Below are positions 4,550 through 47,014 of a DNA stretch of 64,000 bases, piece after piece (the first letter of the stretch is position 1; each line of letters starts with the position of its first letter). The stretch comes from Escherichia phage FEC14. The DNA is taken from sequence record MG383452. One strand, given 5' to 3'. The notes under the pieces are model-generated. The model saw only the letters and a list, made by a program, of their open reading frames with translations. It was not told the DNA's origin and searched no databases. The position numbers and the translations under genes are program-made.

Positions 4550-4652
4550 GGTGTAGTTCCTTCATTTCAGAGTCAGTGTTGTGCTGCTTATGGAATGAAG
4601 TATACGGGGTTTATTGAAGAAGTAAACCCCGTTTATTGAATAAATTTTAAAT

Positions 4653-37631: not shown

Positions 37632-38486
37632 TTAGCTCCTTGTGCTTTCTAGGAATACAGTAAATCCAGCAGGATGAAAATGCTGACGGAAGACGCGCTC
37701 AAACACACCTTCAAAATCAGATACGTCGCCTGGGACTCCTATAACATAAGTGTATTCATCATAATAGTAATCATCACGCATCCCTGTCGTGCCGTCACAT
37801 TCAAAATTTCCGTCCAGACCGCCTATGTCTTCTTTCGTAAAATAGACGCTGACTGGACAACCGAAATATATCCAAAAGAACAATTCAATCGCTTTCTTTG
37901 TTCCACGTATTTTATAGATGTGTTTCAACAATTTCAGCCAACGCGGATGATCCAGAGTTCTCCGTTTCGTTCCTTCGATATAAACAGAGAACGTATCGCC
38001 CGTGGCCGTCAATAAAGAATCCGAACCGACTGGGATAAAATGTCCAAATTCTTGAAATGATTTATCAACAGTTCGTTGGAAACCAAAATCATTATACCAG
38101 TCATCTATCTGTTTGTTCTTATCTTCTATTGACAATAGCGGCCTTCCGTCGGCATCTAAAAGTTCTTCGGCATCCAGAGCCATCATGTTCTCAAAGGTAC
38201 GAACCAAGAATTTATCAGACAAATAATCCTTGGCCTCTGAGCCTGGAGTCTTGTCAGCCTTTAAATCAATCAGCTGTTTAACCGGAGAATCTTCACTCTC
38301 GGGATTCATCCAACTAGACGTATCTGCCAGATATGCCAAGATCTCTTCTTGAGTGAACCCCTGCTGTCTATACAGCCAATTGAAGAACGTGTCCATAAAT
38401 TCTATGAACAGAGGGAAATCATTCTGGTAGAACAACGGGGTTTCATACTTAACCCCGTTGTGTCCATTATTAAGATCTTTGGACAT
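37632..38486 (-). CDS. putative baseplate component
   Basis: Internal ATG (MSKDLNNG...) chosen; sits between the baseplate wedge-like and tail-fibre genes. Confidence 0.4.
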   Translation of the reverse strand: MSKDLNNGHNGVKYETPLFYQNDFPLFIEFMDTFFNWLYRQQGFTQEEILAYLADTSSWMNPESEDSPVKQLIDLKADKTPGSEAKDYLSDKFLVRTFENMMALDAEELLDADGRPLLSIEDKNKQIDDWYNDFGFQRTVDKSFQEFGHFIPVGSDSLLTATGDTFSVYIEGTKRRTLDHPRWLKLLKHIYKIRGTKKAIELFFWIYFGCPVSVYFTKEDIGGLDGNFECDGTTGMRDDYYYDEYTYVIGVPGDVSDFEGVFERVFRQHFHPAGFTVFLESTRS

Positions 38487-40251
38487 AGCGCACCTCTGGC
38501 GTAACAACCACATCACCAATCTTGAATACTTGGTTTTGTGTAGCCTGTATGTTCTGGTTCAGTCCATCCGGTAACACGACTATGGTCACCCCTTCAGGGT
38601 TATAGTTAGAGACCGTGATCTGCTGAAGGTCTACAACCCCATTTGCATAATCCACAACCCCTGTTTTTTGAACTAAAAACTCTTTTGTCGTGTCATTGTT
38701 ATTCACTTTATACATGTTCAAATCGCCATTATTGTCGCGCATGTAGTAAGTGAAATCCACCTCGGCAGGAAGCGGTTTGAACCCCGTTATTTTCACAGAA
38801 CCAGGTTTGATACTTCGTCCATAACTGAATGTGAAACTGTCTAAGACTCCATAATCAGGTTTGAAATGGCGTTTATAACCAACCGAAGTAATATTCGAGT
38901 TAATAGAACGCTCCATTTTTGTAATTGCTTCCTGCAATATTTCTTTGTCAAACAATTGATCAAATCCGCCGAGATTATTTTCACCCCATTTAACGATACT
39001 GTTTCCAACAACAACTTTCATCTGTTCTTCAACGTAGACTGTAGAAGTAGGATCCCAAAATATAGTCGTTGAGACTTGGATATATGTGATCTCGGAGTCT
39101 ACTACTTTGGGGGTAATAGATCCCACATTATACTTGTCCAGAGCAGCAACGATATCGGCCTTCTCAGCGTCCGAAAGTGTCTCACCAACAGAAGGTATAA
39201 CAGCGATGTAAACATAGCCAGAATCAGGAGGAGACAGCGTGTCACCACCATATGATTTAGCTCGGGAGACGTTGGAGAATAACCTTTCAGTCAATACACC
39301 ATAATCTGTTTCTGTAACCGCCGCACCATCAGCCTGATAAGCTAAAGGAGCCAACCGTTTAGTGTCCTCAATAGATTCTGGATCGTCTCCACCTGCGCTA
39401 CGTTCGGAAACCAATTCTACGTCGACCTGGTTAAACCCGCCTATGGATGACGCTGATGACAGGCTTGTAATATCATTCCCATCAGCACCAGAAGTTTCTA
39501 AGTATTGAAGGAATATGACGTTCCCATCTTCTACTCGACGCGAAAGATAACCATCTCCGAATTCAAACACATACAGACCATCAATACCCAATTCTACGAA
39601 ATACAGGTAGGCATATTGGCTCAGATCAAATGGACTGTTGTAACGTTGATATGTCGTCGAAACGTCGGAAGACTCTGATTCTTGTACTTGCACGACCATA
39701 TGATTGATATCGACATTCCCAGAAGGAATCGTATATGTTGAAATCGCGCTTCCTTCAACATCATATGTCTTGTACAACCAATTCCCCTGTACCAACTTTA
39801 CATTGTTGAACATGTAATAACCGTCTGCAGTCAACGTTGCCGACACTGGTTTCTCAACAGTAAAGTTGTAGGAACTGCCGTCTTTTGCCCCAACGAACAT
39901 TACGCGCCGATCCATGATGATCTCATTGGGGGCTGTGCTGGCGTCATAAGGCGTAACTTTGATGTTGACATACATGTATGCTGCCCGATAGTTGTCAGGC
40001 GTGTAGGAAAGAAATGCAGCAGATAAACCGACGTTTGAACGTTGATTTGCTGTCTTCAAATGGCCTTCACCATTAAGCATGTTTTGCATAAAGGCTATGG
40101 CGTTCGCGTCAGATGCCAACAAACGAATAATCGCACTAAGACCAGAACCTTCAAAGTCATAATCTTTAAAGGTGGGATCAGCTTTCATTCGCTGTTTAAT
40201 AATGTATTCAAATGCTCTGACGTCGAGTGAAGGAACTGTTTGCGTGGCCAT
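38470..40251 (-). CDS. baseplate wedge-like protein (gp6 position)
   Basis: 593 aa from the ATG with GGAGA RBS; the track ORF start at 40302 is a non-ATG codon that overlaps the promoter box. Confidence 0.45.
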   Translation of the reverse strand: MATQTVPSLDVRAFEYIIKQRMKADPTFKDYDFEGSGLSAIIRLLASDANAIAFMQNMLNGEGHLKTANQRSNVGLSAAFLSYTPDNYRAAYMYVNIKVTPYDASTAPNEIIMDRRVMFVGAKDGSSYNFTVEKPVSATLTADGYYMFNNVKLVQGNWLYKTYDVEGSAISTYTIPSGNVDINHMVVQVQESESSDVSTTYQRYNSPFDLSQYAYLYFVELGIDGLYVFEFGDGYLSRRVEDGNVIFLQYLETSGADGNDITSLSSASSIGGFNQVDVELVSERSAGGDDPESIEDTKRLAPLAYQADGAAVTETDYGVLTERLFSNVSRAKSYGGDTLSPPDSGYVYIAVIPSVGETLSDAEKADIVAALDKYNVGSITPKVVDSEITYIQVSTTIFWDPTSTVYVEEQMKVVVGNSIVKWGENNLGGFDQLFDKEILQEAITKMERSINSNITSVGYKRHFKPDYGVLDSFTFSYGRSIKPGSVKITGFKPLPAEVDFTYYMRDNNGDLNMYKVNNNDTTKEFLVQKTGVVDYANGVVDLQQITVSNYNPEGVTIVVLPDGLNQNIQATQNQVFKIGDVVVTPEVRYVQRS

Positions 40252-40291
40252 GATAATCTCCATCACCTGAGTTTGAATATGGTGTTGAAGA

Positions 40292-40298
40292 TATTTAG
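40292..40298 (-). promoter_or_regulatory. late-promoter-like CTAAATA box
   Basis: Minus strand reads ttggCTAAATAtcttc about 45 nt upstream of the ATG at 40251. Confidence 0.4.
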
Positions 40299-40368
40299 CC
40301 AACGGGAATCAAAACGCTCGCGCGCGTTTAATTTATTCGAATATACTCGCGAGGGGGCTGACGCCCTC

Positions 40369-40618
40369 GCTCGTAACACCGCCTTGACAGGCAGTCCCAT
40401 TCCACAGCCATGGAGGCTGCTTCTCGTTGTTCGTTAACACTCACAACTCGAAGGGCACCGCGTTAAGATACAGTTTCTTGATGTTGTAGAAAAGCTCGTA
40501 ACACCGCCTTGACAGGCAGTCCCATTCCACAGCCATGGAGGCTGCTTCTCGTTGTTCGTTAACACTCACAACTCGAAGGGCACCGCGTTAAGATACAGTT
40601 TCTTGATGTTGTAGAAAA
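40369..40618. repeat. 125-bp direct tandem repeat, two near-identical copies
   Basis: gctcgtaacaccgccttgacaggcag...gatgttgtagaaaag occurs twice head-to-tail, preceded by hairpin gcgaggg-ggctgacg-ccctcgc; lies in the divergent intergenic region 40303-40728. Confidence 0.8.
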
Positions 40619-40728
40619 GTAGTTTTTACCTATTAATAAATCACGCTCCTATTTTGTTGGCCTTTAATTCAATAACACTTGTACGAATATAATAGTTTGG
40701 ACAAACAACCGTTATCAAGGAACCTCTC

Positions 40729-41301
40729 ATGCATATCAACACTGCTGTATTAAAACATATCATCCCTTTGTTAGAAAAATATGAAGGGAAAGTAATGTCT
40801 GAAGTGCCATTTGAGAAAATTCGCACCGAAATAAAGCGTCTGACAAATAAAGATGTCAATTACCGTCGTGTCCTTTCTTCTGGGGTAGAACTTGCAAAGT
40901 CTGACTTCAAAACATCTTCGACATTCTCTTTTAATATCGATGCCACTGCGACACTAATGGGTGAATTAATGCAGTCAACACAATCTCGCCGTGACCGCTT
41001 TCGTCATTTATGTGTTGCTAATGATTTACCGATCACCCGCGTTGGAATCAAATTGGAGGCAATCCGTTCTGACACTTGCTTCACGATAAATTATATTGTC
41101 GAGCCAGGCTCTCAACACATTTATTTTGCCGCCGTGATCGGTTTCTACGGCACCTCCATCAATGGGTGGGCTGAGCGCGTTGAATTAAAAGAGACACTGA
41201 ATAAACACAGCACTCCTTCCACTCATTATATGTCACAGGCCGCCGCCCGTGAATATGTGTATCTGATTGAGCGCGATGTGAAGTTAAAAGTGGTAAAATA
41301 A
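40729..41301 (+). CDS. hypothetical protein
   Basis: 190-aa ORF, AAGGAA RBS and ATG; first gene of the rightward cluster. Confidence 0.5.
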   Translation: MHINTAVLKHIIPLLEKYEGKVMSEVPFEKIRTEIKRLTNKDVNYRRVLSSGVELAKSDFKTSSTFSFNIDATATLMGELMQSTQSRRDRFRHLCVANDLPITRVGIKLEAIRSDTCFTINYIVEPGSQHIYFAAVIGFYGTSINGWAERVELKETLNKHSTPSTHYMSQAAAREYVYLIERDVKLKVVK

Positions 41302-41358
41302 CGCTTTATTCAATAAATAATTGTAGTAAAGTTAGTTGCATGGAAGGGAGGGAACACT

Positions 41359-41505
41359 ATGTTTTACATGATGTTACTCCTCATCCTCCTGATCGGGATT
41401 ACCTGCTCTCTCCTGGGTCTACCTGATCAGTCCGGTAAACAGTTGCCCACTTCGGCGCATCCGGTTTTGAGTGAAGGTTCGTCCGCACTGCTGTGGGCAG
41501 TGTAG
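41359..41505 (+). CDS. small hydrophobic peptide (about 48 aa)
   Basis: Strong GGAAGGGAGGG RBS then ATG; my translation gives MFYMMLLLILLIGITCSLLG... Below ORF-track cutoff. Confidence 0.3.
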   Translation: MFYMMLLLILLIGITCSLLGLPDQSGKQLPTSAHPVLSEGSSALLWAV

Positions 41506-43775
41506 CTCAAAGGGGAGAGGACTTTTCAAATTAGCTGGGCTGCGGTAAAGTATTAAACATGAGGGAAATAACACAGTGGGAGTCGGGTTTGCAGCCCAAA
41601 ACCAGTTAACCCCTAGTCTCAGGGGCTTGTGTGAATAGAGGCGTAATAGCCACCTCGCTGGTGTCAGTGGACGCACTTGACCGTCGGAGAACGAAACTCC
41701 CTGTTGTAGCGTGATTAGCTCAGAAAAACGAGAGCACCCCGTTGGCAAGTCGACACCAACATATAAGGGGAGGTCGGGGGCGCTAATCTCCATCACGCCG
41801 ACAACATTATGAATCTTCATAGAGGGTTCATAATGTTGCGTCAAAGGGCAACAAGAGGATTCCTGTTGGTTGAATTAACTTGATTCATAGTTCCTGCTGA
41901 TCTTCCCGGATTCAGAAGAACACCGACAGGACGAGGCCGGATGCGTAAGTTCCGGCAAATCGATGGTGAGGTGGTGAGGTGGTGCATTGGTGACACGGGG
42001 TAGCGCTCAGAAGTTTGGTTCGATTCCGCACCCTCTCCAACAAAAATAAAAGGTTTTATCAATAACGGGTTACAAAGTATAGTTAACTCACTGAACGGCA
42101 AGCTGTTTGAGTCCTGGCCACTCATAGCGATGTGAGACCAAGACAGGTAGGTTTAGGACTCAAACAGGTTTTCGTTCTCGTTGCTTGCGACTTTGCGGGT
42201 TTTTAGAAACTGACCACAAAGATAAATGCAAACGATAACACGTTCCTGGCAGTAGCTTAACAGCCATACACCAGTGAGGTCTTCCGATTCCTCATCACCA
42301 AATTCGGCGCACTAAAATAGACGGGAGGGTGTGATTAATAATCTCCCGTCGACAATGAGCGGAGCGTGTACTTAATAGGTCGATGGGAGCAGACTACTTC
42401 TGAGAAATCAGGAGCGTACATGAGAAGGTTCGAGTCCTTCCTCCAATCCCAACGCCGTTATATCTGACTGTCCAAAGGGGATAAGCTCCTGAGTAGGCAG
42501 AGGTGGGTTGCCTAAGTCAGATGGGATGTAAGGTCAGCGCTGGCCAAGCATTTGGGTTCGACTCCCTAAAACGGCTCCATATCTTTGAGGGCATTCCGCG
42601 TCAGACGCGAGACTGTATGGAGTTTCAGGAGAAAGGCAACTTAAATCCGAGGCAGTAATGCCCTATGAAATATCGGAGCCTGTTGTACACTGAGTGCCCT
42701 CAAAGATGTGTCTCACAGCGCATCAGTTTGCAGTTATGCAAGCTTCAATAAGTTAAAACGCGCCTCGGGCGTTATGGGATAAAGCCTTAAACAGTGGAAT
42801 CCCCAGGGCTAGCAATCCCTGTCAAAGAAGTAGCCGTGTGGGGGGGTTTGCCCCCACAACGCAAATCGAAGTTCTCTGGGTATATCTTTTAACCCTCAAG
42901 GTCTGTACACAGAAGTGGCCGTCCCATGAGTAAGTTAGGCGATATACAACATGTTGGGTCGAACCTGTTAAGCCCAGAGAACTTCGATTTGCGTACTTGA
43001 GAGAGCGTTGTATGAAATAGGGCAATGCCTTGCAGACCTCGACGCCTACACATTCTAGACACTGGTGGGCGCTGGCGAAGATCTCAATATAAGCTGGTCA
43101 TCAAGGGTAGCTCCCTGACTAGACGAACAATGAGAGGCCGAACTAAGGGGAAACCCGAGACAGGCGCAGTATTCTCGAGTTCGCAAAACAGTGATCATCT
43201 GACAAGTGTGATCACTCTTCGATAGAGACATTACATCGTGGCCATCAACCACATCCTCGCTCTAGTGATGAGTGGTGTTATGTTTCTGTCGGCCAGCCTC
43301 GTTTGGTCCGAGCGATAGAGGACAAGTATTCGGTGTGACGAAGACATTGAATGCGAGTTGTGACATTTGGTTGCAACTTTGATGGCTCTGGATTTCATAA
43401 ACCATGTCTATGGGTGACGCGGGATCTTTAGTACCAGAGCCATCAAAGTTGTGTCCAACCCGATCTTGCAAGCCCGTATCCCTGTATGGTCAAGACTTGC
43501 AAGTGGAAAGCCCTGGAAAAATAAACGCCTGTGGTGAGGCTACGGTGCAAGCCAAAGACCCACAGAAGCGCGTTGCCGTGAGGCGCACAAACAGGCATGC
43601 ATGAACTGATCATGTACAAACGGGATAAAGGGTTGAGAGACCTTGGTTGGTCACACAATAAATTATGGGGCGATAGTTTAAGGGACAGCTGTCCGGACAG
43701 CGAGTCCCCAGAGAGAACAGGCTGGCGGCCAAACCAGCAAGGAGAGGTGAAAATCCTCAGACCCCGCCAAATTTT

Positions 43776-43851
43776 GGCCCCGTAGCTCAGTGGTTAGAGC
43801 AGTCGACTCATAATCGATTGGTCGCTGGTTCAAGTCCAGCCAGGGTCACCA
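43776..43851 (+). tRNA. tRNA-Met (anticodon CAT)
   Basis: Folds by hand into a cloverleaf: acceptor ggccccg/cagggtc, D-arm gctc-agtggtt-agagc, anticodon loop ctCATaa, T-arm gctgg-ttcaagt-ccagc, 3' CCA encoded. Confidence 0.8.
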
Positions 43852-44263: not shown

Positions 44264-44339
44264 GACGATGTAGTTCAGTCGGTAGAACGGCGGTCTGTTA
44301 AATCGTATGTCGCAGGTTCAAGTCCTGCCATCGTCGCCA
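44264..44339 (+). tRNA. tRNA-Asn (anticodon GTT)
   Basis: Acceptor gacgatg/catcgtc pairs perfectly; D-arm gttc-agtcggta-gaac; anticodon loop ctGTTaa; T-arm gcagg-ttcaagt-cctgc; CCA encoded. Confidence 0.8.
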
Positions 44340-45006: not shown

Positions 45007-45095
45007 GGAAGGTTGCCCGAGAGGTTTAAGGGACTCGACTGCTAATCGAGTGGGGCTTTTAGCCCCCGAAGGTTCGAATCCTTCACCTTCCGCCA
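45007..45095 (+). tRNA. tRNA-Ser (anticodon GCT), long variable arm
   Basis: Acceptor ggaaggt/accttcc; anticodon stem ctcga/tcgag with loop ctGCTaa; 17-nt variable arm tggggcttttagccccc; T-arm gaagg-ttcgaat-ccttc; CCA encoded. Confidence 0.8.
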
Positions 45096-46312: not shown

Positions 46313-47014
46313 ATGCGTAATGTTACGATTTGGGATTACAACGATGTCGTTTGTGACCTGCCTCCATTTGCTCGCCTGTACACATACAAAGGGAACAAAC
46401 GTACTCTGAATGAGTTCTTGTATCCGGCATATATCTATCGGGACGGGCATCTTGCTCCGCGATCACTTGAAGAAACTGGTGTGTGCACTCCTTTTGATAT
46501 CAACAAGAAAGGGCAAGCGGTATTCATTGGTTATTCCAGCGAAGACGACATGGTAAATGGTCGACGCGGTCTGTATATGGTGTTCAATACATTTGAGCAA
46601 GCCGTGAATTGGTTATTCAAAAATGGTTATGATTTCTATGGTGAAGAGAGTTCTACTGCTCGCCGCCGTAAAGTAAAGAATGTTGATTTCTACGCAGAGC
46701 GCAAGAAATATCTGGATATCGCTCATCAATATGAGCAATCTAAGAAATCCGTTCTAATCAAACCATGCGTTACGGTCGGTGAAGAAGTGAGTGTCGTGGA
46801 CAATTCCTATTTGGATCAGGCAATTAAATCTTTGAAGCCAACTCCTCTGGCCAGTGGTGCTCCGGTTGTTAAACATGACAGTTCAATCCCGACACCGCCT
46901 ACTCCTCCGGCCAGTCGTGTTCTGAATGATCAGGGCGCTCCGGTAAAACAAAAGGTCGAGAAGCCGACTTTCATGGATAACATGATGAAGTTCCTTCGTC
47001 TGTTCAAGAAGTAA
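46313..47014 (+). CDS. hypothetical protein
   Basis: 233-aa ORF, GAGGAAA RBS. Confidence 0.5.
   Translation: MRNVTIWDYNDVVCDLPPFARLYTYKGNKRTLNEFLYPAYIYRDGHLAPRSLEETGVCTPFDINKKGQAVFIGYSSEDDMVNGRRGLYMVFNTFEQAVNWLFKNGYDFYGEESSTARRRKVKNVDFYAERKKYLDIAHQYEQSKKSVLIKPCVTVGEEVSVVDNSYLDQAIKSLKPTPLASGAPVVKHDSSIPTPPTPPASRVLNDQGAPVKQKVEKPTFMDNMMKFLRLFKK

Follow-up and report, generated by a model that had tools for sequence, protein, structure and literature searches.

Introduction

The pseudoknot operator of T4 gene 32 and the HK022 putL and putR antiterminator RNAs are compact phage leader RNAs. Here we examine a 64,000-nucleotide stretch of the genome of Escherichia phage FEC14 (sequence record MG383452; hereafter the window, with positions counted from its first letter), in which a perfect 125-bp tandem repeat covers most of a conserved ~150-nt non-coding element that we name locus A. 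Overall, we consider it probable that the unit belongs to a conserved RNA element encoded on the minus strand, present once in each relative and duplicated incidentally in MG383452. Its likeness to the gene 32 and put RNAs lies in a hairpin or pseudoknot upstream of phage genes, in several related copies per genome (loci A, B and C), each oriented with its downstream gene, and in a terminator-like hairpin that follows the element at loci B and C and, in Kuttervirus, at locus A. It differs from them in that it has no sequence or Rfam similarity to either, and locus A lies upstream of a putative late promoter rather than in a mapped mRNA leader. The put RNAs, moreover, consist of two stem-loops and have neither a pseudoknot nor the G.A motifs seen at locus A; a protein partner or antitermination would be conjectural here.

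Two further systems invite comparison. The replication origins oriE, oriF and oriG of T4 use promoter-derived primer RNAs and, like locus A, are associated with a main transcriptional divergence and a skew shift, lie beside baseplate genes and have a plausible non-coding transcript (PMC3016281). Unlike locus A, these origins share no common sequence motif and are not known for covarying structured RNAs; the repeats of oriE are 12 nt long and numerous, whereas locus A is a single 150-nt element. The PeSL cassettes of T4-type phages, reportedly described by Arbiol et al. 2010, are said to combine a strong sigma-70 promoter with a terminator stem-loop and to occur in dozens of copies in hyperplastic regions. 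Both they and the element studied here are short repeated intergenic stem-loop cassettes able to mediate recombination (compare the suggested exchange at locus B of phage Mansal, below), but our unit contains no promoter, and there are only three loci per genome, beside core genes. In the phage group to which FEC14 belongs, Kutter et al. 2011 left the early promoters and the late consensus unidentified and noted that the points of divergence must hold unknown promoters (PMC3184105).

The repeated unit is part of a conserved non-coding element

Tandem Repeats Finder reports a single array at 40369-40619 with a period of 125, 2.0 copies, 100% matches, no indels and a score of 502. Direct string comparison confirmed that the two 125-mers are the same letter for letter, so that the 'near-identity' of the original prediction, a reading made from the letters alone, was imprecise; an exact repeat of this length cannot have arisen by chance. 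One more base (G) agrees past the 125-mers, which leaves a 1-bp ambiguity or microhomology at the junction. No further copy of the unit turned up when the region was compared by BLAST with the remainder of the window. The perfect duplication, the GC hairpin directly before it and its place between leftward genes and the rightward cluster starting at 40729 had all been described correctly: the array separates a gp6-like baseplate wedge gene on the minus strand, toward which the element points, from the plus-strand gene at 40729 (coordinates in Table 1).

The genome is that of a Kuttervirus (Ackermannviridae, CBA120/SFP10-like). Kuttervirus phages such as SFP10, CBA120 and S117 share 99.9% identity with the region, and over 22 kb the best match of the genome is CBA120 at 96.6%. 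In the best relatives a 1601-base query corresponds to a span of 1476 bases, exactly 125 fewer. A 100-base query centred on the junction was split into two pieces on a single 126-bp stretch in all 40 listed of the 221 matching records, and those sampled among the 275 records that contain the unit matched it without a break. The 31-nt junction sequence was not found in IMG/VR, GTDB (one genome per species) or the JGI metagenomes, and the region had no match in E. coli complete genomes or PLSDB plasmids. Since the unit is single in the relatives and the junction is absent from these collections, the duplication is private to the MG383452 genome; it is either very recent or an untrimmed assembly overlap. 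With a single copy in the relatives, nothing suggests selection for two, and the earlier proposal that both copies are maintained by selection is contradicted. The original prediction had held that related phages lacking the repeat would speak against it, and for the duplication this is what the copy-number comparison found: the unit stands once in some 275 relatives, which excludes a conserved array. The tandem repeat is thus real in the sequence yet incidental or artefactual.

In contrast to the duplication, the unit is widely kept. Locus A occurs once per genome, upstream of gp6, in every examined phage of Kuttervirus, Agtrevirus, Limestonevirus and Taipeivirus. For the 126-bp unit, identity amounts to 90.5% in Limestonevirus of Dickeya, to 83-84% in Taipeivirus of Klebsiella and to 89% in one Serratia phage, and across the four genera the element ranges from 83 to 100%. 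Whole genomes of Ackermannviridae are only ~59% identical between genera (PMC3296691). The conserved ~150-nt block exceeds the duplicated segment on both sides, as seen in alignment A1 (...CTACTCGCTTC/GCTCGTAAC...GTAGAAAAG/TAGTTTTTACCTATTAATAA, slashes marking the limits); its right-hand part, GTAGAAAAGTAGTTTTTACCTATTAATAA, was not duplicated, the right limit of the duplication falling in the loop of a hairpin. Substitutions in the element show no codon periodicity, the loops carry 1-2-nt indels, and the ATG of the sole small open reading frame, which sits in the loop of the hairpin called hp2 below, is lost in Taipeivirus. A coding role can therefore be ruled out.

Permissive searches gave only chance-level matches to Rfam 15, with no family on the element at E<=1 in the window and, in other phages, none for loci A and B at E<=5, and the RNA element is apparently undescribed. 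A diverged homolog, seen by eye, accompanies gp6 genes of 66-67% identity (L027/L028); in it hp1 is replaced by GGUCA...UGACC and hp2 is missing. The covariance model of locus A finds no element in L027/L028, nor at gp6 homologs of ~30% protein identity.

Compensatory changes support a pseudoknotted fold on the minus strand

We infer from the aligned sequences that the most fitting reading of locus A is a structured RNA encoded on the minus strand, in the sense of gp6, with the order 5'-3' hp3, hp2 with a pseudoknot, hp1 and hp0. The formal pair counts cover hp3, hp2, the pseudoknot and hp1. The rod-like hp3 has 11 pairs, with two internal loops of tandem G.A. At loci A and C together its pairing is 100%, compensatory changes affect four of its pairs and neither G.A motif varies: in alignment A8 the outer stem alternates between CUUC/GAAG, CUUU/AAAG and AUAC/GUAU and the inner pair between U-A and C-G, while the four G.A positions do not change. 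The metagenomic relative L214 adds a third inner-pair variant, A-U. The stem of hp2 is invariant at locus A and reads AUGCC/GGCAU at locus B, which amounts to two compensatory pairs.

The loop bases CCAU of hp2 would pair with an AUGG that lies four nucleotides downstream, an H-type arrangement. All four pseudoknot pairs are formed in 17/17 sequences from loci A and B. One of them covaries, being A-U in 10 sequences and C-G in 7, at both loci and in two subfamilies; the C-G state is found at Taipeivirus locus A, at Taipeivirus locus B and at locus B of the Aglimvirinae phage CRW-SP2. The seven pairs of hp1 are likewise 100% paired, with a U.G conserved in 15/17 sequences, a closing pair that is A-U or G.U, and compensatory changes at two pairs. 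Finally, the tail hairpin hp0, whose pairing comes from reading the alignments and stands outside the formal counts, has the full form C-GA-GC-GAA-GC-GA-G; in Kuttervirus its loop is enlarged by insertion of the GC hairpin that stands before the array, GAGGGC-GUCA-GCCCCCUC.

These helices are kept by compensatory changes beyond the level of both shuffled and slid controls. In alignment A5 (hp2, pseudoknot and hp1 of loci A and B; 17 sequences) 96.9% of the cells are paired against a shuffled mean of 86.3%, with five pairs showing compensatory double changes and with the pseudoknot helix and hp1 each 100% paired. The full element at locus A (A6; 11 sequences) gives 99.3% against 96.1%, and hp3 (A8; loci A and C, 7 sequences) gives 100% against 88.3% with four covarying pairs. 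In each case 0/500 shuffles reached the observed value, a statistic that overstates significance because the sequences are related and several covarying pairs may go back to one or two events. Slid registers reached 27-54% pairing in A5 and 23-64% over the three alignments. The small structured RNA, which the original prediction had offered as one of several candidate roles, is thereby supported for the unit by covarying helices, the pseudoknot and family-wide conservation.

Two candidate helices were set aside. One, in the 3' half of the unit between two variable segments that flank ATACAGT, showed no common register on reading the alignment; the other, a closing helix GUGCCC/GGGAC, was left out because it competes with the better-supported pseudoknot. 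Folding of the array as a whole predicts possible pairing between the copies through their hp2 arms, which are self-complementary.

The assignment to the minus strand rests on several asymmetries. On this strand there are 48 G.U cells (32 in A5, 13 in A6 and 3 in A8). The sole A.C cells are two that stem from MAFFT misplacement in Magnus and May, and none is genuine. Read on the plus strand, A5 would be 85.8% paired, which equals the shuffle level. RNA is well known to form stable tandem G.A pairs; read from the plus strand, these positions would be U.C/C.U mismatches. The pseudoknot loops on the minus strand are L1 = 1 nt and L3 = 4 nt over a 5-bp stem, while on the plus strand L3 would be 1 nt. 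To judge from established pseudoknot stereochemistry, these lengths fit classical H-type geometry on the minus strand only.

Paralogs precede two further core genes

A covariance model built from locus A (R1) matches both copies in the window on the minus strand, at 40360-40464 with 130.1 bits and at 40485-40589 with 122.7 bits. Two paralogs, both outside the 64-kb window, are kept family-wide. Locus B, a shorter version with hp2 and its pseudoknot, hp1 and hp0, lies upstream of a gp5-like hub/lysozyme gene in every tested genus (35-57 bits). Locus C, with hp3 and hp0, lies upstream of the gp45 sliding-clamp gene (25-47 bits). There are thus three loci per genome, beside core genes, and each is oriented toward its downstream gene. 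The B locus of Salmonella phage Mansal (L202 360-468) has an A-locus-type flank, GAGCGAGGGCGTCAGCGAGTA, which suggests ectopic exchange or gene conversion between the paralogs.

At locus B a covarying hairpin (GGAAGC/GCUUCC in some sequences, GGAUGC/GCAUCC in others), followed by a U/A-rich run, stands between the element and the late promoter. A terminator-like hairpin also follows the element at locus C; at locus A one is present in Kuttervirus (AAACGC-N6-GCGTTT) and is not kept in other genera in alignment A1. The motif that we take as the late promoter, (C/A)TAAATA(Y)C, occurs ten times in the window, each time 30-50 nt upstream of a start codon and often with a short hairpin after it, and it looks like the late-promoter consensus of Ackermannviridae. 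Because the repeat lies upstream of this motif at the gp6-like gene, it falls outside the late gp6 mRNA.

Back-to-back -10-like hexamers overlap at 40688-40694 / 40713-40718: a TATAAT on the plus strand, for the orf218-like gene, and a TATTAT on the minus strand with a -35-like TTGATA. The latter was considered as a promoter that would run from 40718 to 40689 and read through the repeat toward gp6, and was rejected since it is not conserved in other genera.

A conserved RNA element as the preferred explanation

Three gene-proximal loci carry a conserved, covarying and strand-biased structure, and from the sequences we infer a role as RNA, transcribed in the same sense as the gene downstream. 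In MG383452 the duplicated 125-bp segment comprises hp3, hp2 with its pseudoknot, hp1 and half of hp0 and stands twice, head to tail, through a duplication that would be very recent and selectively unimportant; its junction shows 1 bp of microhomology. As to function, our best guess, held with low confidence, is a cis-acting leader or small RNA that would be made from an upstream non-late promoter and act on gp6, gp5 and gp45 through read-through or expression; a common protein could have its sites in the recurring tandem G.A motifs. A bolder version, which we regard as possible but doubtful, is that the loci at gp6, gp5 and gp45 form a new modular structured-RNA family specific to Ackermannviridae that would control pre-late expression of these core genes or prime replication near them, for instance as leaders that act by processive antitermination or by attenuation, or as primer RNAs of an origin at the main divergence point, the duplication then being a genuine natural dosage variant.

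Several points weigh against reading locus A as a conserved RNA. The sequences are few and closely related, and several of the covarying pairs amount to one or two events. Sigma-70 scans and motif recurrence searches found no conserved promoter for a minus-strand RNA at locus A, and literature searches found no transcriptome or non-coding RNA report for Ackermannviridae. Only at locus B is the terminator-like hairpin that follows the element conserved, which makes the guess of an attenuator-type mechanism weak. The A-run/T-run hairpin at the right edge has its G.U pairs on the plus strand, on reading alignments A1 and A4, and may be no RNA helix. Finally, with regard to the incidental duplication, its limits cut structural modules, the repeat is unique, and exact terminal overlaps are known from assemblers in Kuttervirus (PMC9409062).

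By itself the duplication, a one-off event or a flaw of the record, carries little weight. The conserved motif matters more: Ackermannviridae are widely used for biocontrol of Salmonella, E. coli O157, Klebsiella and Dickeya and would carry an unannotated conserved structured RNA motif, which offers a concrete handle on early and middle gene control and on replication origins in this family. The covariance model is ready for annotating their genomes, and the motif would account for the tendency of Ackermannviridae phage assemblies to break at these sites.

Alternative explanations for the element and for the repeat

The same conservation could in principle reflect function at the level of DNA. 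The cumulative GC skew has its minimum at ~40 kb (window 38000-42000), where the leftward block of late and replication genes diverges from the rightward block, so that locus A sits at both the skew minimum and the main transcriptional divergence; oriE, oriF and oriG of T4 lie at such points, oriE with an early promoter and direct repeats (PMC3016281), and locus C is likewise in a divergent intergenic region. On reading the alignments, CGAG motifs recur at ~10-nt spacing, and G.T wobbles and sheared G.A pairs also form in DNA. A replication origin, a primosome site or a protein-binding site, with the hairpins formed in single-stranded DNA and the site doubled by the duplication, would accommodate these observations. 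We nevertheless think such a DNA element improbable, since a covarying pseudoknot and a strong G.U bias toward one strand are typical of RNA and locus B lies away from any divergence point. The hairpin sequences vary freely while their pairing is kept, which disfavours sequence-specific protein sites in particular. The iteron-like origin that had been proposed finds no support in that form: iterons are several short, evenly spaced direct repeats in conserved number, and here there are two 125-bp copies in one record and a single copy in ~275 related records. The location at a divergence and skew turning point, where T4 origins tend to lie, leaves an origin-associated role of the element as a less likely reading. 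The other proposal, that the repeat duplicates sigma-70-type early promoters or operators of the divergent genes, took its cue from a perfect TTGACA in each unit and from a position between divergent genes whose early promoters are unidentified (PMC3184105). The original prediction had seen no obvious -10, and this holds: there is none at 16-18 nt, and scanning both strands of the unit for the consensus reveals no promoter. TTGACA itself is not conserved, being CTGTGC or CTATGC in PH4, Magnus and May; read on the opposite strand it is the loop of hp1 plus one stem pair, and its bases covary within hp1. Both flanking genes have their promoter-like motifs beyond the unit, and relatives have one copy. 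Duplicated promoters or operators are therefore very improbable.

For the preferred reading of a conserved RNA duplicated incidentally, there remains the question of how the second copy came about, and of the two options left standing only one bears out the recent duplication that had been proposed. A real, very recent event through illegitimate recombination or template switching has, in our judgement, about an even chance; it fits the 1-bp microhomology and end points at hairpins, and T4-like phages readily make tandem duplications. On the left the duplication cuts hp0 where the GC hairpin has its base, and on the right it ends within the A/T hairpin's loop. Since these limits ignore the modules, the two copies differ in what they keep. 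In the RNA sense, copy L, the downstream one, has its native downstream context, including the complete hp0, but is without the native upstream block; copy R, the upstream one, has its native upstream context but is missing hp0's 3' half, since it runs into the novel junction, GUUACGAGC/UUUUCUAC. That the limits cut modules (hp0 and hp4) would also suit an assembly artefact, in which the untrimmed terminal overlap of a circular assembly was moved inside by rotation, for example to a start at rIIA as in CBA120/Vi01, or by wrapping, the phage itself being single-copy. We give this somewhat less than an even chance. Not one letter differs between the copies, none of ~275 relatives or of the public contigs searched shares the repeat, and the window coordinates fit a CBA120-like orientation in alignment to CBA120, as a rotated record would; two other assemblies, the rabagast record and contig L214, end inside the same ~150-bp element. 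CBA120-type genomes are circularly permuted with random ends (PMC3184105; PMC9409062, PhageTerm table), and contigs with identical 77-bp ends were obtained with SPAdes from circularly permuted genomes in a study that included Kuttervirus isolates (PMC9409062). The array resembles such terminal k-mer overlaps in its exact identity, in a length that, being odd and <128, is a legal k-mer length, and in the circular assembly of the genus. It departs from them in that 125 is not a default k (21/33/55/77/99/127) and in being internal, at least 23 kb from either window end, so that an extra rotation or wrap step is needed; the location of both limits at hairpin features equally suits a biological template switch. 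That the repeat stems from a pac site or a fixed genome end was considered and set aside in view of the random permuted ends that PhageTerm shows for this genus (PMC9409062).

Two records bear on how assemblies treat the element. The rabagast record MT074469 (L208/L209) is opened inside hp3, with the end ...GGTGCCCTT and the start CGAGTTGTGAG..., and IMG/VR contig 3300014888_000016 (L214:1-60), from a metagenome, begins at that motif as well; these paralogous repeats seem to be places where assemblies break.

Features of the region and its surroundings

Table 1. Positions of the repeat, the predicted RNA helices, neighbouring genes and signals. Positions refer to the window unless a CBA120 coordinate is given; for helices the second range is that in the other copy.
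Feature	Position	Strand	Sequence or remark
Copy L of the 125-bp unit	40369..40493	-	Tandem Repeats Finder; downstream (3') copy in the RNA sense
Copy R of the 125-bp unit	40494..40618	-	Tandem Repeats Finder; upstream (5') copy in the RNA sense
Copy-to-copy junction	40486-40502		GTAGAAAAG/CTCGTAAC
GC hairpin	40351-40368		GAGGGGGCTGACGCCCTC; directly before the array
hp3, rod-like hairpin	40420..40453; 40545-40578	-	CUUC-GA-GUUGU-GA-GU-GUUA-AC-GA-ACAAC-GA-GAAG; two tandem G.A internal loops
hp2	40405..40419; 40530-40544	-	CAGCC-UCCAU-GGCUG; loop bases CCAU predicted to form the pseudoknot
Pseudoknot 3' strand	40396..40403; 40521-40528	-	GGAAUGGG; AUGG predicted to pair with hp2 loop CCAU
hp1	40378..40395; 40503-40520	-	ACUGCCU-GUCA-AGGCGGU
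hp0, tail hairpin	40346..40373	-	C-GA-GC ... GC-GA-G; tandem G.A pairs; alignments of loci A, B and C
Conserved right-hand block	40611..40639		GTAGAAAAGTAGTTTTTACCTATTAATAA; A-run/T-run hairpin and invariant tail; near-invariant columns in alignment A1
Terminator-like hairpin	40312..40329		AAACGC-N6-GCGTTT; between element and late promoter; pattern scan
Late-promoter-like motif of the gp6-like gene	40290..40298	-	CTAAATATC
(C/A)TAAATA(Y)C sites	3063(-), 14816(-), 19066(-), 25582(-), 30804(-), 33039(-), 36436(-), 40298(-), 48284(+), 58832(+)		Putative late promoters
gp6-like baseplate wedge gene	38470..40251	-	ATG at 40251; translation; gp6 annotation in CBA120 and many other records
Divergent rightward gene	40729..41301	+	CBA120 orf218 homolog; PHROG 3788; hypothetical product
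Locus B in CBA120	NC_016570 ~46409-46507		L002
Locus C in CBA120	NC_016570 ~90673-90732		L003:40673-40732

Tandem Repeats Finder lists two other short tandem arrays in the window, one at 1091-1124 (15 bp x 2.3, 100% identity) and one at 4588-4641 (22 bp x 2.4 copies, 78% identity). To the right of the divergent gene, ~2.2 kb at ~41506-43700 (CBA120 134233-136402) hold no annotated gene; this stretch follows an orf219-like open reading frame and precedes an HNH endonuclease and a tRNA cluster. Within it, 42110-42260 gives a weak match to the tmRNA_permuted model (E = 0.084). CBA120 also has a long hairpin at L001:6433-6526 that matches a microRNA model (E = 0.008). The tRNA cluster lies on the plus strand in the rightward block and comprises Met-CAT at 43776-43851, Asn-GTT at 44264-44339 and Ser-GCT at 45007-45095.

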